NCBI GenBank assembly: GCA_017432825.1 | Contig: JAFRIJ010000002.1 | Span: 34,170 to 98,169 of the forward strand | Length of the DNA: 64,000 nt | Source: Bacilli bacterium | GTDB taxonomy: Bacteria > Bacillota_I > Bacilli_A > RF39 > UBA660 | Direction of reading: 5' to 3' | Shown here: positions 10,015-45,403 of the stretch, piece after piece | Layout: every line of letters starts with the position of its first letter | Position numbering within the stretch: position 1 is the stretch's first letter | Position numbers and translations under genes: made by a program | The notes under the pieces: generated by a model | Seen by the model: only the letters and a program-made list of their open reading frames with translations | Database searches by the model: none | Told to the model about the DNA's origin: nothing

Positions 10015-11472
10015 TTATTTTAATTCTTTAGCTACTTCTTTAACTATAGCAACTTCATCAAAAGGAGTAATAACACCTTTTATTTCTTGGTATGCTTCAT
10101 GACCTTTACCTAAAATCATAATAACATCACCTTCTTTAGCATTTAATATACTATATCTTATAGCTTCCTTTCTATTAGGAATAACCTTATAATTATCTCC
10201 TTCAAAAGTACTTAATATATCTTTTATAATATCATTAACATCTTCATATCTAGAATTATCTTCTGTAATAATAGAAAAATCTGCATAACGAGAAGCCACT
10301 CTACCACAATCATATCTTCTCTGTTTACTTCTATTACCACCACATCCAAATACAACAACTATTCTTTTTGGATTACCTTCTCTAATAGTTTTAATAACAT
10401 TCTCCATTGCAATACCTTGATATGCATAATCTATTAAAACATTAAATTTATCACTAACATTAACAGATTCTAATCTACCCTTTACAGAAATATGTAATAA
10501 AGTTCTTTTTAGTGTATCATTATTTACATTAAGTAATTTACATAAAAGAATAACTCCCATCATATTATAAGCATTAAATACACCTGGAATACTAACTTTA
10601 AAGTCATCAGTTAAAACACCTTTAACTTTCATATCTATACCAATAAAACCAGATTCAATTATATTCTTTACACTAACTAATTGTAAATCAGCTTTATCAC
10701 TTTTACCAAAAGTATACTTTTTTAAATTAGTATCCTTAATCATATATTCATATTCTTTATCATCAACATTAAAAATACCAACACGAGCTTGTTTAAACAA
10801 TCTACTCTTACATTCTCTATAATCTTCATAGCTATCATGCTCATCTTTTCCAACATGATCTAAACTTAAATTAGTAAATATTGTATAGTCAAATATAATT
10901 TCATCCCATCTATGTAACTTTAAAGATTGACTAGACACTTCCATTACTAAATATTTTACTCCATCATCAAGCATTTCCCTCATATGTTTATAAACATCAT
11001 ATGATTCGGGACTAGTATTTACAGTATGATAATATTTATCACCAATAAATATACCTAAAGTACCAATACAACCACACTTCTTATTATCATTATTTAATAT
11101 ATTCATAATGCTAATAGCAGTTGTACTCTTTCCCTTAGTACCAGTAATACCAATAGTAGTTAATTCTAAATCAGGACAGTTAAAAAAGTTTCTAGATATT
11201 ATTGCCAAACACCTTCTAGAATCTTTAACCTTTATAACTGTAACATCATTATATTTAGTATCAATATCATGTTCAACCATTAACACTTTAGCTCCATTAT
11301 TAATAGCATCTTCTATATATTTATGACCATCAACCATAAAGCCAGTAAGTGCAACAAACATAAACCCTTCTTTAACATTTTTAGAATTATACGCTATATC
11401 TTTAACATCAACTAAAACATCACCAGATATAACTTCGTAATCAATATTATTTAATATATCTTTTAATTTCAT
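10015..11472 (-). CDS. murE: UDP-N-acetylmuramoyl-L-alanyl-D-glutamate ligase MurE
   Basis: 485 aa. Mur ligase P-loop GITGTKGKST and a C-terminal EDNSRYED motif (DNPR-like). Confidence 0.9.
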   Translation of the reverse strand: MKLKDILNNIDYEVISGDVLVDVKDIAYNSKNVKEGFMFVALTGFMVDGHKYIEDAINNGAKVLMVEHDIDTKYNDVTVIKVKDSRRCLAIISRNFFNCPDLELTTIGITGTKGKSTTAISIMNILNNDNKKCGCIGTLGIFIGDKYYHTVNTSPESYDVYKHMREMLDDGVKYLVMEVSSQSLKLHRWDEIIFDYTIFTNLSLDHVGKDEHDSYEDYRECKSRLFKQARVGIFNVDDKEYEYMIKDTNLKKYTFGKSDKADLQLVSVKNIIESGFIGIDMKVKGVLTDDFKVSIPGVFNAYNMMGVILLCKLLNVNNDTLKRTLLHISVKGRLESVNVSDKFNVLIDYAYQGIAMENVIKTIREGNPKRIVVVFGCGGNRSKQRRYDCGRVASRYADFSIITEDNSRYEDVNDIIKDILSTFEGDNYKVIPNRKEAIRYSILNAKEGDVIMILGKGHEAYQEIKGVITPFDEVAIVKEVAKELK

Positions 11473-33325: not shown

Positions 33326-33643
33326 TTACTTGTATATAACATTTGTATCAGTCCAACAACTAATTGCAGTATCATCACCATTAGCATTTTTAGAAACAAT
33401 ACCCATTACAAAACTAACTAAAGTTACAACTAAAAATACTGCTATTGCATAAATAAGTCTCTTAATAAAAGTATTTTGAGCTTTTTTCATTTCATCTTCT
33501 TTACCTGCTACAACAGCCTTTGCTAAATCAATAGTACCAAATACTATTAGTAAAATAGGAATACCCCATCTAATAATATTAATAATAGCTTTAATTATAC
33601 GAATTGCAGGTGCTAAAGTATCACAATAATCTAAAAAAAACAT
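33326..33643 (-). CDS. small two-TM membrane protein (VirB2/TrbC-like topology, family uncertain)
   Basis: 105 aa. Two hydrophobic spans (WGIPILLIVFGTIDLAKAVV and LIYAIAVFLVVTLVSFVMGIV) separated by a charged loop (GKEDEMKKAQNTFIKR). Confidence 0.5.
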   Translation of the reverse strand: MFFLDYCDTLAPAIRIIKAIINIIRWGIPILLIVFGTIDLAKAVVAGKEDEMKKAQNTFIKRLIYAIAVFLVVTLVSFVMGIVSKNANGDDTAISCWTDTNVIYK

Positions 33644-33756: not shown

Positions 33757-35214
33757 CTATTTATATTTAAAAAGAACAAAATTTTTATCTCTATATATAT
33801 CATTTCCAACATCTCTAATTAATAATTCATAAAAAATACTATCTTTATTAATTAAAATATATTCTACTTCATATTTATCAAAAACCTTTAAATAGCTAAC
33901 AGCTTTAATATCAAGAATATCATCAAATAGTGTTACACCCTTATTAAATTCATTTAAATATAAATCACATCTACTATCAATAATAACAGGTATATCATTT
34001 AACATTAAATAACTACCATAATTATATGCATTAAACAGTTTAATATTTTTATAATCAAGATTTTCTTTAATATATTTAACCGCATCCACAGGAAATTCCT
34101 TTTTATTAACATAAGAAGCATTATTATTAGAATGAATAATCATCACAGCAATAATTATAACAATAAAACCAACATACCATTTTTGAGCAACTTTATTAAG
34201 TAAAATTTCAAACTTAGAACTCTTTTTACTATTTAAATATCTAGAAATAATAATTAGAATAAACATAACTCCAATTGAATAGAAAAAAGATAGATGTCTC
34301 ATTGAAATTAAACTCATTATCATTACACCCAAAATCATAAATAACTCAGATAATTTTATCTTAGCTTTAGTAAAAATCATAAAAATTAATAATATTAAAA
34401 CAAATATCAAAAACATAGGATATTTAATTACAATTAAAGGAAAGTGTTCTGTAATAAATTTTTGACTATCACCCATCATTATTCTAAAAACATAAGAATA
34501 ACATATCCTACTTGGAGATAACAATCCCATACCAAATGATAATATAAAAGAAATAATTAAATACTTAAAATTATCATTTTTACTAATAATAAGCTTATCA
34601 CTTATCTTAAACTTAAATTTCTTACTAAAAAAATAAAAAATTTCTTCCCCAATAAAAGGTAAAAATAACACAAAATAAAATAACCATACAGTACCATGAA
34701 TATTTGCCAAAAGCAAAGATAAAAAACATAAAATAATAATATATCTTTTTTTACCACCATCAATTAATTTAAAAATATAATATATCTCTAAAATAAATAT
34801 AATAAGCGAAAACAACTGTGCTCTTGCAGTAGCAGCTCCCAACAAGCAAAAACTAACAATCAATGTAAAAAGAATTGATAAAAACTCATTCTTATTTATC
34901 TTCATATTAACATAATAAAAAGTAATTATTAATAATATATAACTAAAAACAGTACTTACATAAATACCATTAAATCCTAAAGAATTATATACATAGTAAA
35001 TAAAAACATCATATAACCAATGTGGATAAGTATATATTAAATTAGCAACCCAACACCAATGATCTTTTAAATCAATACCATGATGAACAATATAATCACC
35101 TAATTTAATCATATAAAAAGTATCATTTTGCATTTCTTTAGTAATACAACAAAAAGAAATAAAAATAACTAATATAAAAAAACATAATCTAATAATATTT
35201 CTATTATTATCCAT
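33757..35214 (-). CDS. polytopic membrane protein, GT-C-like architecture (about 10 or more TM plus a C-terminal soluble domain)
   Basis: Start at ATG 35214 behind AGGTG. Many TM spans are followed by an extracytoplasmic domain of about 120 aa. The resemblance to ArnT/PMT-type glycosyltransferases is in layout only. Confidence 0.45.
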   Translation of the reverse strand: MDNNRNIIRLCFFILVIFISFCCITKEMQNDTFYMIKLGDYIVHHGIDLKDHWCWVANLIYTYPHWLYDVFIYYVYNSLGFNGIYVSTVFSYILLIITFYYVNMKINKNEFLSILFTLIVSFCLLGAATARAQLFSLIIFILEIYYIFKLIDGGKKRYIIILCFLSLLLANIHGTVWLFYFVLFLPFIGEEIFYFFSKKFKFKISDKLIISKNDNFKYLIISFILSFGMGLLSPSRICYSYVFRIMMGDSQKFITEHFPLIVIKYPMFLIFVLILLIFMIFTKAKIKLSELFMILGVMIMSLISMRHLSFFYSIGVMFILIIISRYLNSKKSSKFEILLNKVAQKWYVGFIVIIIAVMIIHSNNNASYVNKKEFPVDAVKYIKENLDYKNIKLFNAYNYGSYLMLNDIPVIIDSRCDLYLNEFNKGVTLFDDILDIKAVSYLKVFDKYEVEYILINKDSIFYELLIRDVGNDIYRDKNFVLFKYK

Positions 35215-35292
35215 ACATATCACCTAAAAACAATATAACATATATATTTTAACCAAACAATAAAGTTAACAAAAAAAATAACTACATAGTAG

Positions 35293-36333
35293 TTAAAATT
35301 TTAAAAATTTATTATTAGATGTATCATTACCTTCATTAGATATCCTTCTATATAAACCTAGCTTACCTAAGAAAGGAAGTAATATTCTAGAATTATCTTC
35401 TCTATCATTCATTGGAGGTAAAGCATAGAAAATCTTTGTATTAGCCTCTCTACCAAATAATGATATATCTTTTTCGTTAAGTAAACAATCATTAAGTACA
35501 ACCTTATAATCTCTTAATTTAATAAAAGAATTAGGTTCTAATCTAGCAATCTTATTTATAGACAAAGTAGAAGGCTCTATTAAATATATAATATCATCAC
35601 ATAAACTCTTAGCATCTTCTTCAGGAAAATCATTTAAATCAACTAAAATAATATTAACATCCCTATACTTATCTATACTATTTCTTAATTCACTAGCAGT
35701 AACAGAAATCATACTCTTATCATTAAAGAATAAAAAATCAGACTTATTTACCTCTAAAGAAATAACAGAATAATTCTTCTCTAATTGACGTTTAATCATA
35801 TATATCAAACTAGTAGCCCCAGCATGATTAGTAAAATTCTTAAACCCAATTACATTAACCTTACTAGAAGACACATTACCTTGCATAACTTGATTACTAT
35901 TATTAACATTCATAGAGTTAACATTAGCATTAGTATTTACATTATTACTAACATTATCCATATTCTGATATCTAACTACATCCCTATACTGATTAGGATT
36001 ATTATATAAATATATTAGTTCATTCTCATTACGAGCAAAATTATATATACCCATACTAATCAATTTAGAAATATAAGCATTATTAATAACAGGATCATCA
36101 TTTAATAATAATATAATTTTACTAACATCAAGTCCAATAGAAAGTTTTTGAATATTATTTATATCTCTGTAATTTTGTATAGAAGTAATATCCAAAAACA
36201 TTCTATTGAAAAAGAAATTAGAAAATGTTTGTACTAATTCATCAGCAGAAAATTCACCACTAATAGACTTAATAATATCAACATTCAAATTAGTAAACTT
36301 ATCCCTATTTAAATTAGATACTATAACATTCAT
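35293..36333 (-). CDS. TadZ/CpaE-like protein (receiver-like N-domain plus degenerate ParA/MinD ATPase)
   Basis: 346 aa. The N-terminal region has a response-regulator-like pattern ending in ISMGIYNFA. The C-terminal half is ParA-like with a degenerate P-loop (FTNHAGATSL). It lies in the Tad gene neighbourhood. Confidence 0.55.
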   Translation of the reverse strand: MNVIVSNLNRDKFTNLNVDIIKSISGEFSADELVQTFSNFFFNRMFLDITSIQNYRDINNIQKLSIGLDVSKIILLLNDDPVINNAYISKLISMGIYNFARNENELIYLYNNPNQYRDVVRYQNMDNVSNNVNTNANVNSMNVNNSNQVMQGNVSSSKVNVIGFKNFTNHAGATSLIYMIKRQLEKNYSVISLEVNKSDFLFFNDKSMISVTASELRNSIDKYRDVNIILVDLNDFPEEDAKSLCDDIIYLIEPSTLSINKIARLEPNSFIKLRDYKVVLNDCLLNEKDISLFGREANTKIFYALPPMNDREDNSRILLPFLGKLGLYRRISNEGNDTSNNKFLKF

Positions 36334-36345
36334 ACAAACACCTCC

Positions 36346-36777
36346 TTAATTTGTTTTAATTACAACTGTCTCTCCACTGGCAGTGATAGGCAAGTCCAAG
36401 ACACTTAATATAGGAAAATTAATTACATGGTATACCTTTACTAAATAATAAGGTTCATCTGAACTAGGATTCTCATTAATAATACATATTCCTAAATCAG
36501 AAAAATTAGTATCTCCTCCAGGACAAGCAGATTGAAAAGTTAAATTTCCTTCAAATCTTGTAGTATAAGGAACAGAATGCAAATAATCCTCCAACTTTTG
36601 ATGAACAATAATACCATTATCTCCATCATATTGATATTGCTCCAATATATTTATAACGTTATTCTTTACTCTATATATCTTAGCAAAATTTAAAGCTACT
36701 CCAATAAATGCAACATATATTATAAAAAATACCATAAATAATTTTAACAAAAAACTACCGCCAAACGCCTCTTGCAT
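36346..36777 (-). CDS. TadE-like pseudopilin
   Basis: Start at ATG 36777 (MQEAFGGSFLLKLFMVFFIIYVAFIGVAL), 8 nt after AGGTGG. Has an N-terminal hydrophobic helix. Directly downstream of the pilin ORF. Confidence 0.55.
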   Translation of the reverse strand: MQEAFGGSFLLKLFMVFFIIYVAFIGVALNFAKIYRVKNNVINILEQYQYDGDNGIIVHQKLEDYLHSVPYTTRFEGNLTFQSACPGGDTNFSDLGICIINENPSSDEPYYLVKVYHVINFPILSVLDLPITASGETVVIKTN

Positions 36778-36818
36778 AATCATCACCACCTAATTCTAAC
36801 TATTCTATAATAAATAAA

Positions 36819-36998
36819 CTAAGGAGTAGGATTAATGTTATCGATACCTTGATTTGTTTTTTGTGTCATTCCATCCCAAGTACCATTAATATACTCTTTC
36901 ATTTTTGGAAAAAGGAAAACAGTCAAAATACCTAATATTGCAATAACTGCAATAATAACTACAACAGTCATGCTTAATTCACCTGTAGCTTCTTTCAT
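36819..36998 (-). CDS. Flp-type pilin candidate (59 aa, absent from the ORF track)
   Basis: ATG 36996-36998 follows an AAGGAGGTG RBS. Translation is MKEATGELSMTVVVIIAVIAILGILTVFLFPKMKEYINGTWDGMTQKTNQGIDNINPTP, a short polar leader ending in Gly followed by a hydrophobic helix of about 22 aa. It sits between the TadC-like and TadE-like genes. Confidence 0.6.
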   Translation of the reverse strand: MKEATGELSMTVVVIIAVIAILGILTVFLFPKMKEYINGTWDGMTQKTNQGIDNINPTP

Positions 36999-37041
36999 TC
37001 AAAACTCACCTCCTTAATATCAAAATATATTTTTTATCAAA

Positions 37042-37833
37042 TTACATAGCAGCAGCAAGCATCATAAACATTGATACTAATAGTAACAACATTCCCCCGC
37101 CACCTGTACAAACTAGCATTATCATAGTCATGCTTTCCATTCTATGAAGTCTATTTTTATACTTTTGTTCTCTTGCTTTTTCTTGTAAACTAGATACACT
37201 TTTAGAGAAAGATAATAGCTGTTGATGTTTTCTTTCTTGTTCTCCAAGACCTAATCTATATAATAATCTCATCATTCTCATAGAATCCCTAACAGGATAT
37301 CTATTAGCAAAATCAGTATAAGGTTGAATACTAGAGTCACCAGCTTCAATCTTAGCAACTAATTCTTTAAGTCCAGGTTTAAATACTGCAGGAGCATCAT
37401 CTATACTTCTAGCAAGAGCTACTGGAACTGTATAATGTTGAATTAATACTTCTAAACCTTTTAAGTAATAAGGAAGTAAAGAATCAACCTCTAATAAATG
37501 CTTTTTATAATAACTTCTTAAACTTATATAATCATATTTAAATACTACAAACGCAGCAATTAAAGATATAACTACATTTAAAAAGTTTAAATTAGTAATA
37601 AACACAAATAACATAAGAGCTAAAATAAGAAAAGCATTTCTAAACCTAGTCATATATATCTTTTGAGGATCAACTACTCTGTCACCATATTTTGCATACA
37701 ATAAAAACTCATAATCACTTTCTTTTAAAGAATTAAATAAATCTTTATTGTCTTCTACAAATCTACCAGTATTAAATCTACCAGTATATATAAACATAAA
37801 AATAACTATAACACCAACTATAAATATTTCCAT
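37042..37833 (-). CDS. TadC-like type II secretion system F-family membrane protein
   Basis: Start moved to ATG 37833 (MEIFIVGVIVIF), parallel to the TadB-like N-terminus MLEIFIICV. It has an N-terminal TM, a central pair of hydrophobic spans and a C-terminal TM. Adjacent to the TadB/TadA-like genes. Confidence 0.7.
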   Translation of the reverse strand: MEIFIVGVIVIFMFIYTGRFNTGRFVEDNKDLFNSLKESDYEFLLYAKYGDRVVDPQKIYMTRFRNAFLILALMLFVFITNLNFLNVVISLIAAFVVFKYDYISLRSYYKKHLLEVDSLLPYYLKGLEVLIQHYTVPVALARSIDDAPAVFKPGLKELVAKIEAGDSSIQPYTDFANRYPVRDSMRMMRLLYRLGLGEQERKHQQLLSFSKSVSSLQEKAREQKYKNRLHRMESMTMIMLVCTGGGGMLLLLVSMFMMLAAAM

Positions 37834-37834
37834 A

Positions 37835-38731
37835 CTATTCAGCCCCCACATTCTCATTATAGAATCTTTCACCTTTTACTAAGAAAAAAGTATTTATAAA
37901 AACTAATCCATGCAAGGCAATTACAATAAATATATTATCTAGCATTGAAATATAAGTATCTATTTGAACAAGAAATTGAAGTAATATTACTATTCCATAC
38001 AAAGCAAATCCAAACAATAAAAACTGTCTATGGAAATTAGCTCTATCCATTCTATCTCTATATACACCTTCAACTAATATATCTATATCTGATAACATAT
38101 TTTCAAAAGTCTCAGCAGTATCTTTAGCACCTTCTTTAGTTACTTGTAAAAATAATTGATGCATATTCTTTACCATAAAGAAAGGATATTTAGCGTTCAT
38201 ATATTCAATAGATGCATATACATCTCCTTTTTCATAAGATAAAGCTATCATTGTTTTTACATCAGATAATACCGGATCTTCTAATATACCAGACTCAACT
38301 ACACCTTCTAATGATTTAACAAAAGCTTGAGTAGTAGCAAATTCCATAATAGTATTTGTAACATATACTTGAATTTGTTCAAATATAAACTCACTATATT
38401 GTCTTTTAGACCTTAAATATGTTAAATAAGGAATAAAAGCAATAGCAATAATACCATATACTATAGCCCAAATTAAACTATAAAAGTATAAATAACCTAC
38501 TCCAGCAGCAAAACCACCAATTAGTACAATCTGAGTAACATATTGCTTAGTAGTATAATCTATTCCCAAAGATTTAATCTTTGATCTCATTTCTTTATAA
38601 GAATAAGGTGCATATTTATCATATAATTCAGTTGCTTTAGCAGATACGAATTTATATACACCATCACCCGTACTTGCTCTATAAGTAACTATAAAGATAA
38701 TTATCACACATATTATAAAAATCTCTAGCAC
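37835..38731 (-). CDS. TadB-like type II secretion system F-family membrane protein
   Basis: 298 aa with the same topology as its neighbour. Directly downstream of the secretion ATPase. Confidence 0.7.
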   Translation of the reverse strand: MLEIFIICVIIIFIVTYRASTGDGVYKFVSAKATELYDKYAPYSYKEMRSKIKSLGIDYTTKQYVTQIVLIGGFAAGVGYLYFYSLIWAIVYGIIAIAFIPYLTYLRSKRQYSEFIFEQIQVYVTNTIMEFATTQAFVKSLEGVVESGILEDPVLSDVKTMIALSYEKGDVYASIEYMNAKYPFFMVKNMHQLFLQVTKEGAKDTAETFENMLSDIDILVEGVYRDRMDRANFHRQFLLFGFALYGIVILLQFLVQIDTYISMLDNIFIVIALHGLVFINTFFLVKGERFYNENVGAE

Positions 38732-38752: not shown

Positions 38753-40222
38753 CTAAACATTACTACCATTAACATTAGTATATAATATATTACTATTTTT
38801 TTCAACAGAATTCTGCAACTTACTATATTGATTATTATTAACATTATAACTAGAATTTACATTACTAGTAACAGTAGAATTATTAATCTTACCAATGTTA
38901 TCACCAACATTATTAATATTTAAATTACTAATATTGCTATTATTAACACCTCTAGATTCATTAATAATTTCATAATTAAGCATAGGATTAATACTACTAT
39001 TTATAGAATTATTTTGTAAAACAGTTGTATTAGCTACATTATTACTTAATACTTGATTATTATTTTGAACAATATTTTCATTATTATTTTGAGCAATATT
39101 AGATTGCTTATCCAAAATATTTACTTTTTCATTATTATAATTTAAAGAATTATCATTTGCCTCATGAAAACTCTCTTTAACAAGTATATCAGGTTGCATT
39201 ATAACACCCTGACTTTCTAAATATCCCAATAAATATTTAGAAGGATTTTGTAAAGTAAATTTACCATCAGGAGTTCTTTTATATAAAATTTTATATTTAG
39301 GATTATTATCTTCATCTACATAAAATTCTACTACCTCTGCTACTTCTCTTTTAAATCTTTGTAATTCTTTACTATAATAGCCCCTAATATGTACACCAAG
39401 TTGTACATATCTATGTATACTTCTTAAAAACTGATCCATATCTATACTAGACTCTAATAAACTATATAGACGACTTGGTATAGATTCAGCCTTTTCAGCA
39501 TGTATTGTTGATAAAATATTATGACCAGAAGAAATAGAATCACGAACAGCCATAACTGCCTCAGCACTTCTAACTTCAGATAACAATATCCATCTAGGAT
39601 TTTGTCTCATACAAGTAACAAGTACATCAGCATAACTAGCTATATTATTAGTTTTCATTGCAACTATATCTCTTTGAGGAAATATCTTATCTAAGTGTAA
39701 TTCCAAAGTATCTTCAATTGTAATTATTTTTTCATCAGGCTTAGTATGAGCAGCTAAGTATTTAATAAACTCAGTTTTACCACTACCGGTTTCACCACTT
39801 ACCAAAATATTACAATGTCCTTCAACACACTTTAGTAAAAAATCATGAATATCTAATCTAATATAATCTTCTTTTAATATTTTGTCTTTTTCAAGTCTTA
39901 TCTTAGCAGGAGTCTTACGAATAAGAACAGCTATACCATTTCTTGCAATAGAATCATGAACAAAGTTCATACGAAGTTCATCTGATTCAGCATCCAAGAA
40001 AGGATTAGCCATATTAAATGATTTACCCATAGTATTAGCACACTGAAAAGCCATTTTTTCCATAAAAGCATTATTTACAGCAGGATTTTCTACTCTAAAT
40101 ACACCTTTAGATAAAGTCTTTAACCAAACTTGACCACCATTACTATAAGATATATCTGTAACATCATCATTATCCAAATAAACTTGAATTGGCCCAAAAT
40201 CAACTTGAGAAAATTCATTCAT
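38753..40222 (-). CDS. TadA/CpaF-type secretion ATPase with an Asn-rich C-terminal extension
   Basis: Walker A SGETGSGKTE, Walker B-like RWILLSEVR (Asp box IITIEDTLEL upstream) and His-box region SGHNILSTIHA. Start at ATG 40222 behind GGAGG. The last roughly 135 aa are low-complexity N/S/V. Confidence 0.85.
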   Translation of the reverse strand: MNEFSQVDFGPIQVYLDNDDVTDISYSNGGQVWLKTLSKGVFRVENPAVNNAFMEKMAFQCANTMGKSFNMANPFLDAESDELRMNFVHDSIARNGIAVLIRKTPAKIRLEKDKILKEDYIRLDIHDFLLKCVEGHCNILVSGETGSGKTEFIKYLAAHTKPDEKIITIEDTLELHLDKIFPQRDIVAMKTNNIASYADVLVTCMRQNPRWILLSEVRSAEAVMAVRDSISSGHNILSTIHAEKAESIPSRLYSLLESSIDMDQFLRSIHRYVQLGVHIRGYYSKELQRFKREVAEVVEFYVDEDNNPKYKILYKRTPDGKFTLQNPSKYLLGYLESQGVIMQPDILVKESFHEANDNSLNYNNEKVNILDKQSNIAQNNNENIVQNNNQVLSNNVANTTVLQNNSINSSINPMLNYEIINESRGVNNSNISNLNINNVGDNIGKINNSTVTSNVNSSYNVNNNQYSKLQNSVEKNSNILYTNVNGSNV

Positions 40223-40241
40223 GAATTTCACCTCCTATTGA

Positions 40242-41090
40242 TTAATTATTCTTTTTTGTATCTTCATTTTTCTTATTTTCTTCAACTACTTCTTTAGTAG
40301 AAGATAAAATTTCATCAACAGAAACCATCTTAGTCTTATCATTAATAAATTTTTGAATATCTTCACTACTTACCATAACAGAATCTTTATCAGTAAGTTC
40401 TTGAGTATTAGGAACTAATATAAGTTCAACACTATATTGACTAGCTAAATAAATTGCTTTTCTAAATAATAAATGCATATCTTCAGGTAAAGCAAATAAC
40501 ATATAAGCAGGAGTTCTAGCTTCATCAGTATTATCAAATACATGTTGTCCAGAACTATCTTTAACATCTAATATTTCAACATTACTAATAAATTTACCAA
40601 ACATAATAGTACCATCATCATTAGTACCCTTAAAATAGATATTAATATAATCCTTAGGCATCATACTATTAGCATAAGTAGTATCCATATTAACCTTATA
40701 ATTAATAACTGTATATCCATCTTTAACATTAACAAATGATGAATTAGGTAAATTCTTTTCATCTATAACTAAATCAGTATAGAACAAACTACCTTGAGCA
40801 ATCATAGTATTATAATTAGAATACTTTCCAGCAATATCATTACCATTTCTATAGTAACTACCAACTAAGAAAGATGCAGGAACATTCATATAACTAATCA
40901 TATCAACAGTAATCTTCGTTCTAGGTTGAATAGTTTGATTAGCATATGGTACTCTAGTTAAAGCAACCTTTTGATTAATCCTAAAATTATAACCCAACCA
41001 CAAAACCACCACACACAAAACAACCCCTAAAATAGTAACTGTGTTCTTATTTCCTAAGAACTTCTTCAACGAACTAGATAAATTATTCAT
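40242..41090 (-). CDS. CpaB/RcpC-like Flp pilus assembly protein (SAF domain)
   Basis: 282 aa. N-terminal TM (TILGVVLCVVVLWLGY), then VALTRVPYANQTIQPRTKITVDMI, typical of the CpaB SAF domain. Confidence 0.65.
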   Translation of the reverse strand: MNNLSSSLKKFLGNKNTVTILGVVLCVVVLWLGYNFRINQKVALTRVPYANQTIQPRTKITVDMISYMNVPASFLVGSYYRNGNDIAGKYSNYNTMIAQGSLFYTDLVIDEKNLPNSSFVNVKDGYTVINYKVNMDTTYANSMMPKDYINIYFKGTNDDGTIMFGKFISNVEILDVKDSSGQHVFDNTDEARTPAYMLFALPEDMHLLFRKAIYLASQYSVELILVPNTQELTDKDSVMVSSEDIQKFINDKTKMVSVDEILSSTKEVVEENKKNEDTKKNN

Positions 41091-41808: not shown

Positions 41809-44187
41809 CTATTTATCGCACGATTCATTAAATTCACCAATGTTACAATAACTATTTTGATTATTTATAGTCTTAAATCCATTACCACTATTTATAAAAT
41901 TATTTGAACCATTGTCATTAATACCTGTCCAACTTGTATACACTTTATCATTAGAACTTATTTTCAAAATATCACTATCGGATAATTCAGCTTTATACAC
42001 TATTTTCCCATTAGGATATAAAGCAAAAGTATTATTCATTCTACTTTTATTATTAGAATTATCCCACCATGTCACCCAATTAGTAGGAATTTTCTTAGGA
42101 AAGGGATCAGAAACATCAATTGTCCTATAAGAAACATCGTATTTAAATTCATTGACATCAATTCCACACTCCGCTTTATAATAAAATTTAAACCATCCAG
42201 TCATACTTAAATTAGATGTAGCTATATTATATGGAAAAGATTTATTAATATCATAATTCAACGGCGTATAATATTTATTTCCACCAGAGACAGAATAACC
42301 TTTTTTCCCCTTTTCATAAGAAACTTCACCATTGCTATTAAAGAAAGCTTCTTTCATCTCCACGTTTGTATCATTGGCAATAAAAACGCCAACTTTTTTA
42401 CCTTTATTATCGCTTGAAGTATATTTATGGTACTCTATATCAGAATCAGGAATAATATTTAATTCGGTTTTATAATCATTTTTAGAGTAATTATTTGAAT
42501 CCTTAGTAACAACATTAAGAGCAAGTAAAGATTCTTTATCTTTCATCTTATCCAACAATTCATTTTTTAATTTATCCCTTACTACATTTTCAATACTTAC
42601 CTTCTCACTTGATGAACTAGCAATCTTACCACTACCAGACTGATAATAATATGGATTATCTAAAGAATCGTGATCTGCAAAATACCATTCTAAATTAGAA
42701 ATATAATTTGTAGCATCATTACCAGAATTAACTAAACCAAAGCCACCACCTGAATAAGTATTTTTTAAATCGAAAGCTCCAAATTTAAATTTAACATTTT
42801 CTATCAATATAACACTTACATAAATAGTATTTTGTCCACTACCAATTTGCAAAGGATGACAACTACATCCATTAAAATTAACTACATAATTCTTATCATC
42901 AGTTGCCTGATCATCAGTTAAACTAGATTTACAAGTTTTGGTAACTGGATCCGATTCATTATGCTCGCCATAAACATTTTTTAGAACAGAATCAGAAACA
43001 ATCGGACACACTTCATGTTGAATTACTCTTTGAGTAACATTTATTTTTCTTGTTTCTTTGTGATTTATAGTAATCTTATTATTTGCATTTTTTTCTTCAG
43101 CTACTAACATATTCTGTGCAATTTCTCCATCTACCTTACATTCAACTTCATCTTTAGCAGAATTATAACAAATTGGCTTATACATTTTAGTATTGTAATA
43201 ATCAACACTAGAATTTTTTATTTCTTTAAAATCAGCAGTTATACTTAAAGTAATTTTATTAATATTATTTCTCTTAGTATATAAATATAATTTTAAATTA
43301 TCTCCTGAGTTCAATGAAATATTCATATCTTCTTCAGTACAATCTTGAGTAGATCCAGAAGTATAACGACAAATTTGAACTCCCTTCCAGTTATTTGCAA
43401 TCGAAATATTAATAGCTTTACTTTCGTTGTTCTTAATTATAATATCATTTGTTTTATAATACCCCGATGTATTACACGTTGTATCATTGGATCCGGATGC
43501 AATAAAATCAAATACAGCATTTAAAGTATTTAACTCAAAATTTATTTTACTACTTTTTGTACTGCTTACATTACCATTAGCGTTTTTAAAATCAGTATAT
43601 GCTTTCCACGCATCTTCTAATATTTTTTTTGTACGTGCATAATCACTTAGATTGTACAATTCATTATTTGCATCTTTACTATTATTAACATAATATGGAT
43701 AAGGAGCATAATTTCTTAAATAAACCCACAATGAAGTTTGAGCATTAAACCATGATTGTTTTTTTCCACCTTTAGAAGTGTTAGTATCAGCTAATCCTCT
43801 ATTTATAACAAATCCCGCAATTATACTGCAATCACCATCACTTTTTAGTTCTCCAGTTCCACCAACTTTATACTTACAGTTACTATTACTACGCCACTCA
43901 GAATCTTCTTGATATTTTTTACTTTCTTTATCAAACTTATTACGACGAGTTGCACAGTATGCAAGAGTATCTTTTTTACCATTATTTACCCATTTACGAT
44001 GGTCATGAGAAGAATTACAATTAGTATAACTATTTGATAAATATGTGAACTTATCCCTATTGTAACAAATTTCATCACTACTACCATAATGAGTAAAAGA
44101 TATAGCGTTAACATTAAAACAAAAAGAGAAAAATAAAATATAAAATATAAATAATAAACTAATTATTCTGTTTTTCACAATATTCAC
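41809..44187 (-). CDS. large secreted Cys-rich protein of unknown function
   Basis: 792 aa. Sec signal (FSFCFNVNA/ISF) and about 20 or more Cys. Translationally coupled to the upstream 218-aa gene (1-nt gap). Confidence 0.6.
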   Translation of the reverse strand: MNIVKNRIISLLFIFYILFFSFCFNVNAISFTHYGSSDEICYNRDKFTYLSNSYTNCNSSHDHRKWVNNGKKDTLAYCATRRNKFDKESKKYQEDSEWRSNSNCKYKVGGTGELKSDGDCSIIAGFVINRGLADTNTSKGGKKQSWFNAQTSLWVYLRNYAPYPYYVNNSKDANNELYNLSDYARTKKILEDAWKAYTDFKNANGNVSSTKSSKINFELNTLNAVFDFIASGSNDTTCNTSGYYKTNDIIIKNNESKAINISIANNWKGVQICRYTSGSTQDCTEEDMNISLNSGDNLKLYLYTKRNNINKITLSITADFKEIKNSSVDYYNTKMYKPICYNSAKDEVECKVDGEIAQNMLVAEEKNANNKITINHKETRKINVTQRVIQHEVCPIVSDSVLKNVYGEHNESDPVTKTCKSSLTDDQATDDKNYVVNFNGCSCHPLQIGSGQNTIYVSVILIENVKFKFGAFDLKNTYSGGGFGLVNSGNDATNYISNLEWYFADHDSLDNPYYYQSGSGKIASSSSEKVSIENVVRDKLKNELLDKMKDKESLLALNVVTKDSNNYSKNDYKTELNIIPDSDIEYHKYTSSDNKGKKVGVFIANDTNVEMKEAFFNSNGEVSYEKGKKGYSVSGGNKYYTPLNYDINKSFPYNIATSNLSMTGWFKFYYKAECGIDVNEFKYDVSYRTIDVSDPFPKKIPTNWVTWWDNSNNKSRMNNTFALYPNGKIVYKAELSDSDILKISSNDKVYTSWTGINDNGSNNFINSGNGFKTINNQNSYCNIGEFNESCDK

Positions 44188-44188
44188 C

Positions 44189-44845
44189 TCAATCTAATCT
44201 GTTCTTCTTCACATTATGTATAACTAAATAAATGCATCCTATAAAAACTATAAAAGCGCCAATAGAAATAATAAGTATATTATTCATAATAAATGATATC
44301 AAATCATTTTTTTTAGTTTTTTTATTAATAGTTTTTTCTTTATATTCGTTTACCTCTTTTAAAAAACTATTATAGGATAATTTATCACTATTATAAAATC
44401 TACTGCACACATCTATTTCATCCTGTATATCACTACATTCACTACTATCATAATATAAATTTAACTTTTTTAAGTCTAAATCTATTGACTTTAACACTTG
44501 ATTAGGGCAAGAATTTGAAAAAATATTTAATTTACCAAAATCAGAACTCACAGTTTCAGAAACGCTACCATCTATAGAATCAGAATAATTAAATATTACA
44601 GTTTGTTCTCTATTTGTAGCATAAAAGCCATCTATTAAACCATATATAGTAATTATATTATATCCATAATTACCAACCTTAGCATTTTCTTCATCATATT
44701 GACTTACAGCAGTTATATTATCTGCAATTTTTTTTAAATCATTTATTTTTTCAGCACTACATTCAGCTTTAACCTTATATGGAAGTATTAAAAAAGTAAT
44801 AATTAATACCAATATTATTCTTCTTCTCACATATACCCTCTCCAC
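44189..44845 (-). CDS. hypothetical exported protein with a C-terminal TM anchor
   Basis: 218 aa. Signal peptide (LILPYKVKA/E), several Cys, and a C-terminal TM (ILIISIGAFIVFIGCIYLVI). First gene of the minus-strand cluster. Confidence 0.5.
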   Translation of the reverse strand: MERVYVRRRIILVLIITFLILPYKVKAECSAEKINDLKKIADNITAVSQYDEENAKVGNYGYNIITIYGLIDGFYATNREQTVIFNYSDSIDGSVSETVSSDFGKLNIFSNSCPNQVLKSIDLDLKKLNLYYDSSECSDIQDEIDVCSRFYNSDKLSYNSFLKEVNEYKEKTINKKTKKNDLISFIMNNILIISIGAFIVFIGCIYLVIHNVKKNRLD

Positions 44846-44956
44846 ATACTATCCTATTTAAAATAATAATACCATTTTTTTTAACAAAAATAAAGAATAT
44901 TTTGTATTTTTTTAAAAAAAGTGGTATTATATTACTACATATCCAAGGAGGAATAT

Positions 44957-45403
44957 ATGAAAAAAAGAAACAATAATTTATTTGTAGGATTAATAATACT
45001 ATTAATTATTATAGTAGCATCGCTATTAATAATAAAAATACTTAATCCAAATAAAGGAGAATTAATTGCAATAAACTACAAAGAATATCAAAATAAAATT
45101 AAAAACAAAGATTCTTTTATCTTAATAGTAAGTCAAAGTACATGTTCACATTGTGCTGAATATAAACCAAAATTAATAAAAATAGCTAAGAAAAATAAAA
45201 TAGATATTTATTACATTGATTATGATTTAGAAACAAGTACAGATCAAAAAGAATTTCTAGATAACAATAATTTAACAGGTTCTACTCCAATTACATTATT
45301 TATTAAACATGGAAAGCAAACAAGCCTATTTGATAGAATTGAAGGAGACGTATCTATAGAAAAAGTTACAGATAAATTTAAAAAATTAGGGTTTATTAAA
45401 TAA
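44957..45403 (+). CDS. membrane-anchored thioredoxin-like protein (CxxC)
   Basis: Start at ATG 44957 behind an AAGGAGG RBS. N-terminal TM and active-site-like SQSTCSHCAEYKP. Divergent from the Cys-rich protein cluster. Confidence 0.7.
   Translation: MKKRNNNLFVGLIILLIIIVASLLIIKILNPNKGELIAINYKEYQNKIKNKDSFILIVSQSTCSHCAEYKPKLIKIAKKNKIDIYYIDYDLETSTDQKEFLDNNNLTGSTPITLFIKHGKQTSLFDRIEGDVSIEKVTDKFKKLGFIK

Follow-up and report, generated by a model that had tools for sequence, protein, structure and literature searches.

A conserved 59-residue probable pilin and its six-residue N-terminal signature in a divergent Tad-like operon of uncultured gut Bacilli

Results

A small gene in the gap between the TadC-like and TadE-like genes

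The 64-kb stretch of Bacilli bacterium DNA analysed here (contig JAFRIJ010000002.1; about 26% G+C), which as a whole we call the window, carries a tightly packed string of minus-strand genes that runs from 44845 down to about 33326 and encodes a Tad-like machine. Within this string the TadC-like gene ends at 37042 and the next listed open reading frame (ORF) starts at 36789 or, as argued below, at 36777, leaving a gap of about 250 bp. An earlier note, made from the letters alone, had placed an unlisted 59-residue ORF in this gap, and both the ORF and its translation are as it described. The encoded protein is very probably a pilin, and we refer to it as such. The features on which the argument turns are as follows.

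36819–36998, minus strand: 59-residue pilin gene with an ATG start, translation MKEATGELSMTVVVIIAVIAILGILTVFLFPKMKEYINGTWDGMTQKTNQGIDNINPTP; MKEATG-E, a hydrophobic helix of about 24 residues and a variable tail
36981–36998, minus strand: pilin codons 1–6 (M-K-E-A-T-G), the putative leader or N-terminal signature and the most conserved part of the protein
37007–37015, minus strand: pilin ribosome-binding site AAGGAGGTG, 8 nt before the ATG, with GGAGGTG-type equivalents in relatives
36346–36777, minus strand: TadE-like pseudopilin gene, 143 residues, starting at ATG 36777 (MQEAFGG) by comparison with homologue starts; modelled with AlphaFold2 (AF2)
36760–36777, minus strand: TadE-like codons 1–6 (M-Q-E-A-F-G), the shared signature

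To collect relatives, species-representative genomes were scanned with the window ATPase. Of the 551 confirmed relatives, 80 syntenic loci were kept, spanning about 8 kb on each side where the contig allowed. Almost all come from metagenome-assembled genomes (MAGs) titled uncultured Bacilli, Firmicutes or 'Tenericutes', joined by Clostridium sp. CAG:302 and CAG:914; these MAGs may represent RF39/RFN20-type gut Bacilli. Adding 15 further related loci brought the total to about 95. The loci read for one database pilin, P0113 (L093–L095), carry the same operon as the window.

The small ORF and its start are kept in the syntenic relatives. A GGAGGTG-type site lies 5–8 nt upstream of the pilin start in each of 25 related loci, and the ATG is retained; for the window, the ribosome-binding site claimed in the earlier note is present and conserved, at a spacing of 8 nt rather than 9. 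Among the syntenic loci, codons 4, 5, 6 and 11 vary synonymously while their amino acids are fixed, which indicates that selection acts on the pilin protein. A single-sequence search returned 99 protein clusters of 39–75 residues and a profile search 2,322, all of about 40–105 residues (clusters counted at 90% identity). None of the 120 clusters listed of these 2,322 carries a Pfam domain, and the listed sequences are named only 'hypothetical' or 'uncharacterized membrane protein' by their source. The family has a median length of 63 residues (range 39–104), compared with 59 for the window pilin. The 59-residue ORF is a genuine, widely conserved gene; a spurious ORF is rejected by the conserved ribosome-binding site, the thousands of homologues and the variation at synonymous sites. 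Ruminant-gut metatranscriptome contigs from three datasets also cover the pilin and TadE-like genes, some of them nearly identical to the window. These are fragmentary, and are contigs rather than reads, with DNA carry-over possible; they lend modest support to transcription of the two genes.

Conservation is strongest at the N-terminus. All 188 database pilins that we read start M-[KR]-[ED]-A-[TS]-G-E-L-[SN]-[ML]-T, 165 of them with MKEATGEL[SN]MT, and retention of the consensus residue is 0.95 over residues 1–7, drops to 0.53 across the helix and is lowest, at 0.19, for the tail. Such hypervariable tails suggest diversifying selection or antigenic variation. The hydrophobic stretch occupies residues 10–31, and at least two cysteines occur in the tail of 91 of the 188 sequences. 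As a separate observation, loci L069, L075 and L076 (at about 10880–11440) hold two tandem pilin genes whose MKEATGE starts are alike and whose Cys-rich tails, of 81–92 residues, are unrelated.

A signature shared with the TadE-like protein

The gene that follows begins in the same manner. The mechanical ORF list starts it at GTG 36789 (MVMIMQEAFGG), but its homologues begin at ATG 36777, which gives MQEAFGGSFLLKLFMVFF and is most likely the true start, as the earlier note had assumed. In the six-frame translation of the window, M-x-[ED]-A-x-G occurs only twice, at the starts of the pilin and TadE-like genes. By first-order Markov shuffling (200 shuffles of the window), 0.085 such motifs are expected per window, and the motif together with a hydrophobic helix appeared in 0 of the 200 shuffles.

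The shared start, which the earlier note had read from these two genes, holds across relatives. Among homologues collected from the syntenic loci by BLAST only, with no motif pre-selection, M-x-[EDQ]-[AGS]-x-G opens 65 of 74 pilins and 63 of 71 TadE-like proteins. The exceptions are near variants, such as MKETSGEF and MKAATGEL among the pilins and MKAVSEST and MKESLSVT among the TadE-like proteins; save for one divergent sequence, the off-pattern pilins retain the glycine and differ at one other position. The 66 locus pilins collected by motif, with Gly6 as part of the search pattern, read M-K-E-[AS]-[TS]-G-E, with Glu7 in 66 of 66. Gly6 is kept in 188 of 188 database pilins, and in both of these sets it is accompanied by a basic residue at position 2 (Lys or Arg). 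TadE-like proteins start M-[RK]-[DE]-[AS]-[FVIY]-G-[GS], and their hydrophobic stretch covers residues 8–30. As the note had observed, Gly6 stands directly before a long hydrophobic helix in both proteins. The pilin thus opens with a short polar segment that contains a basic residue and ends in Gly, with a net charge that is about neutral. Inspection led us to reject an ordinary Sec signal peptide: at about 24 residues the hydrophobic stretch exceeds the usual length, and no Ala-x-Ala-type site was seen.

A profile–profile alignment (hhalign) of the pilin and TadE-like families covered the first 26 residues, at a low probability of 9%. The TadE-like family comprises 297 clusters, with no Pfam match. 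Its AF2 model (mean predicted local distance difference test score, pLDDT, 82.7) consists of a helix over residues 3–47 (45 residues) and a small three-stranded sheet, a predicted shape that is pilin-like; in a Foldseek search against the PDB it found nothing below E 0.2, and the only matches were chance-level ones to levivirus coat proteins. DUF5411 proteins, encoded in the same operon, are alike in outline over their first five positions, M-[KR]-[YW]-[SAG]-[FY], and do not share Gly6.

Comparison with pilin family models

The start of the pilin had been likened in the earlier note to a class III signal peptide that lacks the Flp motif G/XXXXEY. The likeness holds for the polar, Gly-ended start and the hydrophobic helix, and fails for the Glu expected at +5. 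After Gly6 the locus pilins continue E-[LV]-[SN]-M-T-V, with Thr at +5 in 59 of 66 and Val at +6 in 58 of 66, so that the Flp motif is absent and Glu follows Gly directly, both as noted; the TadE-like protein has Ile at +5. Glu at +5 is typical of bacterial pilins and not universal, since Sulfolobus and Haloferax pilins lack it (PMC3875500).

Family models likewise fail to recognise these proteins. Pfam matches at E ≤ 1 were tallied for 76 pilin and 65 TadE-like members, taking the 25 most-matched families of each. Neither Flp_Fap (PF04964) nor DUF4244 is among those of the pilins or among the window pilin's own matches; this is the comparison that the earlier note had proposed. Flp1_like matches 2 of the 76 pilins (best E 0.14), and NCBIfam gives no match for the pilin. 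The commonest family is archaeal Pilin_N, a weak match in 7 of 76 (best E 0.0086). TadE (PF07811) is absent both from the most-matched families of the TadE-like members and from the window protein's own matches, and PF13400 appears in 3 of 65 (best E 0.24). Their N-terminus, M-R-D-A-F-G-G-x-F-M-I, has no Glu at +5 and departs from the TadE-type G/xxxxE[FY]. From its sequence, the 59-residue protein appears to work like a Tad/Flp pilin, yet it is not a Flp/Fap member: tests for the defining motif and for a match to the family model both failed.

The best matches of the pilin profile in the PDB are weak ones to type IV pilins (E 0.026–2; geopilin 0.026, fimbrial protein 0.044), and they bear on where the protein might be cut. 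These alignments put Thr11 on Thr2 of FTLIE pilins, and the pilin's LP-x-M-[RK]-[NE]-Y-I resembles IPQYQNYI of type IVa pilins. In a type IVa register (M10=F1, G23=G14, P31=P22), cleavage would fall between Ser9 and Met10. We find this very hard to credit: the E-values are weak (at least 0.026) and reflect mostly hydrophobic helix, position 9 is Ser or Asn and not Gly, the resulting +5 is without Glu, and the TadE-like proteins do not share the register.

A model for processing and assembly

Taking the whole chain together, we give about an even chance to the reading that the 59-residue protein serves as major pilin in a divergent Tad-like (type IVc-like) machine and is cleaved after Gly6 by an unlinked peptidase. 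The pilin and the TadE-like protein would insert in the membrane with the polar M-[KR]-[ED]-[AS]-x-G segment in the cytoplasm and the helix of about 24 residues spanning the bilayer. One common factor would read the shared N-terminal signature, most likely an A24-type prepilin peptidase encoded elsewhere that cuts after Gly6, leaving Glu1 on the pilin and Gly/Ser1 on the pseudopilins. The CpaF-like ATPase and two platform proteins of the operon would then extract the subunits and polymerise them into a thin fibre, with a core of conserved helices and a surface of hypervariable, often disulphide-bonded tails. Such a fibre probably serves adhesion. The membrane topology, the cut and where it falls, the nature and genomic position of the peptidase, the building of a fibre and its function are all inferred.

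Distant relatives of the TadC-like protein offer a second view of the N-terminus. Loci were fetched for ten TadC-like relatives; one of them (L082) has no ATPase or pilin-like genes, and two (L083 and L089) hold little beyond the TadC-like gene. In the distant loci, small genes next to the ATPase and platform genes begin with a fixed nine residues that end in aromatic-Gly and are followed by a helix, as in MKEILQEYG-GFVL, MQEILKEYG-PAII, MKEVLKEFG-GTII (154 residues), MRTIIEEYG-MFMI, MRKFFEQYG-DVIL and MAEFIKEWG-PAII. The pattern M-[KR]-x-Φ-Φ-x-[EQ]-[YF]-G, with exactly nine residues before the helix, was found in 19 of about 24 pilin- or pseudopilin-like proteins, from organisms of 23–49% GC. 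Pro directly follows the Gly in two probable major pilins, and the closest outgroup has MKDYTG-ELVL. Pfam found no Flp or TadE among these small proteins, and one DUF4244 match (E 0.11). Two interpretations of these nine residues suggest themselves: an extended leader, or a leaderless pilin displaying the Flp E-Y-G motif.

Alignment of the window proteins and these distant relatives on Gly is favoured by F5-G6-G7 of the window TadE-like protein, which parallels F8-G9-G10 in a distant relative, an aromatic residue preceding the Gly in each. Prepilins are typified by an invariant Gly followed by a helix of about 22 residues, and in this alignment that feature would support a leader of six residues in the window and nine in the relatives. 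Class III leaders of 5–13 residues that end in Gly and precede a polar +1 residue (Gln) are known from Methanococcus maripaludis, and short class III leaders also occur in Gram-positive Flp pilins (PMC3875500). This precedent makes a six-residue leader plausible, and the site is less aberrant than the earlier note implied. After a cut behind Gly6, the N-terminal Glu could presumably cyclise to pyroglutamate, a speculation by analogy with archaeal +1 Gln.

A linked peptidase was not found. As far as is known, every type IV filament system characterised to date has a prepilin peptidase among its core components. The GxGD-K motif is absent from every frame of the window and, one obvious false positive aside, from the ORFs of the 80 loci. 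Peptidase_A24 (Pfam) matches none of the window ORFs with at least three predicted membrane helices, two short ones (130 and 100 residues) falling outside the scan, and PF01478 is absent from the precomputed Pfam lists of the 15 further loci. Since the search was limited to the window and about 95 loci, the 'missing' peptidase of the earlier note means one that is not linked: its absence holds for these regions. The gene can be unlinked, as is reported for tadV in Bifidobacterium breve.

Several observations weigh against cleavage after Gly6 by such an enzyme. No A24 peptidase gene was found in the window, the 80 syntenic loci or the 15 other related loci, these being linked regions only. It is unusual for a discarded peptide that the putative leader is of fixed length and better conserved than any other part of the pilin, and its net charge is about neutral, not positive. 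In some TadE-like paralogues Gly6 is replaced by Ser or Glu, and the Pro after Gly in the two probable major pilins of distant relatives makes an awkward cleavage site. Lastly, no Flp, DUF4244, TadE or T2SSF model in Pfam or NCBIfam matches any component.

All but the last of these points also speak for leaderless pilins, in which MKEATGE would stay in the mature subunit, its acidic residues would act as Flp Glu5 and no peptidase would be needed. The loci without an A24 gene include modules inside conjugative-element clusters, which are often self-contained. The nine-residue starts MKEILQEYG, MRTIIEEYG and MKEVLKEFG resemble the mature Flp start xxxIEYG, with its E5-Y6-G7, preceded by only two additional residues. 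Imam et al. 2011 also list tad-like loci of Gram-positive bacteria in which no prepilin could be recognised (PMC3244431). Aligned on Gly, however, the window pilin reads E-A-T-G and has neither an acid nor Tyr immediately ahead of the Gly, and many relatives carry Gln, Ile or Val, not Glu, before the Tyr. The status of the peptidase as a core component, the freedom of its gene to lie elsewhere and the restriction of the search to linked loci tell in the same direction. We consider leaderless pilins in the window rather unlikely. The broader proposition, that this clade and the wider Firmicute M-K-x-Φ-Φ-x-E-Y-G systems build type IV-like filaments from unprocessed pilins with no peptidase, we regard as doubtful. 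If true, no type IV filament lineage before these would have been found to do without this supposedly universal component. Some of the systems appear to be embedded in Gram-positive conjugative elements.

The operon and its other components

The pilin and TadE-like genes belong to an operon with a conserved order: a 218-residue anchor, a large secreted protein, DUF5411, CpaB-like, ATPase, TadB-like, TadC-like, one or two pilins, one or two TadE-like proteins, a 346-residue protein and, often, a small two-helix protein. Gene order was listed for 15 of the 80 loci, and the components from CpaB-like to TadE-like were detected in 71–80 of the 80. The remaining features are as follows.

41809–44845, minus strand: genes for a 218-residue membrane-anchored protein and a 792-residue Cys-rich secreted protein; 58/80 and 50/80 loci, at low identity
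41116–41796, minus strand: DUF5411 protein with an N-terminal membrane helix; Pfam DUF5411 5.7e-33; 71/80 loci
40242–41090, minus strand: CpaB/RcpC-like protein with one N-terminal membrane helix; 79/80 loci; NCBIfam CpaB E 0.041 (weak)
38753–40231, minus strand: ATPase of the T2SSE family and CpaF/TadA type, its C-terminal tail rich in Asn; Pfam T2SSE 3e-26
37835–38731, minus strand: TadB-like platform protein; 80/80 loci; labelled from position and membrane topology
37042–37872, minus strand: TadC-like platform protein; AF2 model pLDDT 91.7; no Pfam or PDB sequence match
35293–36333, minus strand: 346-residue cytoplasmic protein after the TadE-like gene; 69/80 loci; invariant residues and a deviant P-loop-like GFKN.T.HAGAT

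In this operon Pfam recognises only the ATPase (T2SSE) and DUF5411. The system is Tad-like by its architecture and its ATPase, most of its parts lying outside current family models, and a clade of gut Bacilli, uncultured and low in GC, shares such a machine. The earlier note's labels 'TadC-like' and 'TadE-like' are tentative ones that follow gene order and predicted folds, with no T2SSF, TadE or Flp model match in Pfam or NCBIfam behind them. The best PDB matches of the ATPase are CpaF (2e-19), archaeal GspE (6e-17), FlaI (1e-15) and VirB11 (6e-15), and it misses every NCBIfam equivalog cut-off. Its C-terminal third (38753–39200, minus strand) carries the tail, some 130 residues long and with abundant Asn, Ser and Gln; for most relatives, similarity to the window ATPase stops between residues 350 and 420, and a similar Asn-rich insert splits the 346-residue protein.

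Neither platform protein has a T2SSF match in Pfam, and profile searches of PDB sequences with their families returned nothing even at E 10. The best Foldseek match of the TadC-like model is OutF/GspF cytoplasmic domain I (probability 0.96, TM-score 0.66 on the target, E 0.74). Paralogy of the TadB-like and TadC-like proteins is not supported by alignment: hhalign covered no more than the first membrane helix, with a probability of 38%. Among representatives at 50% identity there are 517 relatives of the TadC-like protein, many of them proteins of about 500 residues that match through their C-terminal half. This suggests that the longer proteins are fused TadB-TadC; one distant fused relative has a weak T2SSF match (E 0.08), and a tblastn search of PLSDB plasmids with a fused TadBC relative gave no match. 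The listed GTG start of the TadC-like gene (37872) is probably wrong. Homologues begin at ATG 37833 (MEIFIVG), right after the TadB-like stop codon, and with this start the apparent 38-nt overlap between the two genes disappears.

Of the upstream genes, that for DUF5411 always precedes the CpaB-like gene. DUF5411 proteins have a pilin-like N-terminus, M-K-[YW]-[SA]-[FY] followed by a helix (MLGVIKVYG in the distant locus L090, 2695–3105), and this Pfam family of unknown function probably represents a pseudopilin of such systems. In the same distant locus the protein at the CpaB-like position matches PF16976 RcpC. The large upstream protein varies in size from about 540 to 1,165 residues among loci. 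Divergent from the operon, a membrane-anchored thioredoxin-like gene (44921–45403, plus strand) lies at the same position in 34 of the 80 loci; since Cys is plentiful in the 792-residue protein and in roughly half of the pilin tails, its product may be a dedicated disulphide-forming partner. Downstream, the 346-residue protein has no match in Pfam, NCBIfam or the PDB (profile search, none even at E 10), and from its position it is possibly TadZ-like. A 488-residue protein follows (33757–35223, minus strand), with about ten membrane helices, no Pfam match and homologues in 14 loci; in some other loci different large polytopic proteins take its place. It may be a glycosyltransferase-like modifier, a candidate label.

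Two genes downstream of the 346-residue gene, beyond the 488-residue protein, lies a gene for a 105-residue protein with two membrane helices (33326–33643, minus strand) and a conserved motif, G-x-I-D-L-G-K-A-V-I-A-S-K-E-D-E. Homologues occur just downstream of the operon in 37 of the 80 loci, sometimes in two or three copies. The protein has a weak, full-length match to PF18895 T4SS_pilin (E 0.009, below the cut-off) and another to a pilin-like conjugal transfer protein in NCBIfam (E 0.62). For a Tad-like operon to come with a VirB2-like protein would be odd. In two of the distant loci (L092, 8300–21467; L086, 600–6800), fused TadB-TadC and MxxFFEQYG-type small pilins lie amid VirB4-like AAA_10, TrwB-like, M23 peptidase, ParA and ArdC-like genes. 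These surroundings look like Gram-positive conjugative elements, with the Tad-like module inside a type IV secretion gene cluster.

Such neighbours raise another reading, in which the 59-residue protein is the core subunit of a short pseudopilus or membrane piston that serves DNA transfer or the secretion of the large Cys-rich protein. It draws on the VirB4-like, TrwB-like, M23 peptidase and ArdC-like genes around distant TadC-like relatives, on the T4SS_pilin-like two-helix protein near the operon in the window and 37 of 80 loci, and on the large variable secreted protein that is always encoded upstream. The hypervariable, Cys-bearing pilin tails, on the other hand, look like those of surface-exposed fibre subunits under diversifying pressure, the operon in the window and close relatives is flanked by housekeeping genes and no transfer genes, and the T4SS_pilin match falls below the Pfam cut-off. 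We judge a piston quite improbable.

Discussion

A fibre-forming pilin would give a testable role to a very large unannotated family (more than 2,300 clusters) in abundant, uncultured, small-genome gut Bacilli, in which gene callers and family models overlook the major subunit and most of the machine. A surface fibre would likely matter for attachment to the host, food particles or partner cells. The invariant MKEATGE, together with the lack of a linked peptidase, makes a clean test of universal prepilin processing. Our literature search turned up no account of this pilin family and none of pili in RF39-type Bacilli, and the accessible texts of Imam et al. (PMC3244431) and Kim et al. (PMC11680825) contain no mention of such a pilin or N-terminal signature. 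A related cluster in another uncultured gut clade, TANB77, has been linked to immune stimulation (PMC11680825), so the surface pilins of such bacteria may be host-relevant.

The closest canonical counterparts are the Flp/Fap pilins (PF04964), such as Flp1 of Aggregatibacter and PilA of Caulobacter. There too, a prepilin of about 60 residues is encoded right after two platform genes and before TadE-like genes, has a short polar start whose final Gly leads into a hydrophobic helix about 22 residues long, lacks a large globular domain and is accompanied by a CpaF-like ATPase and a CpaB/RcpC-like protein. The window pilin differs in its Glu at +1 and Thr at +5, its leader of only six residues and its lack of a Pfam match, and the locus has no tadV. 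It also has no secretin, as expected for a single-membrane envelope.

Two sets of Firmicute loci come nearer in setting. The pilus cluster of the gut order TANB77 described by Kim et al. 2024 (PMC11680825) likewise belongs to uncultured low-GC gut Firmicutes and has CpaB-, TadZ-, TadA/CpaF- and TadB/C-like genes followed by pilin-like genes unseen by sequence models. Its protein 931, whose halves resemble TadB and TadC, has the layout of the TadC-like relatives of about 500 residues. Unlike the window, where TadB and TadC are separate and the major pilin has 59 residues, that system comes from Clostridia, has the fused platform protein and has pilin-like proteins of 143–236 residues, with no pilin of about 60 residues mentioned in the text available; the word 'prepilin' is absent from the main text, and peptidase processing is seemingly not discussed there. 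The 'no Flp' loci of Imam et al. 2011 (PMC3244431) are also Firmicute tad-like operons, distant from canonical tad and with no canonical prepilin signal. They are reported with tadV, whereas the window locus has none linked and offers a candidate pilin with a signature of its own.

The Epd pilins of Methanococcus maripaludis, processed by the peptidase EppA (PMC3875500), are the nearest parallel in the subunit itself. They are 54–63 residues long, carry class III signal peptides of 5–13 residues ending in Gly, have a polar +1 residue and lack the Flp motif. The window ATPase comes only slightly nearer to CpaF than to archaeal GspE/FlaI, and archaeal Pilin_N is the commonest weak Pfam match of the pilin family. 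The Epd pilins have Gln at +1 and Glu at +5 (PMC3875500), in contrast to Glu at +1 and no Glu at +5 in the window, and the window operon is bacterial, with CpaB-like and DUF5411 genes.

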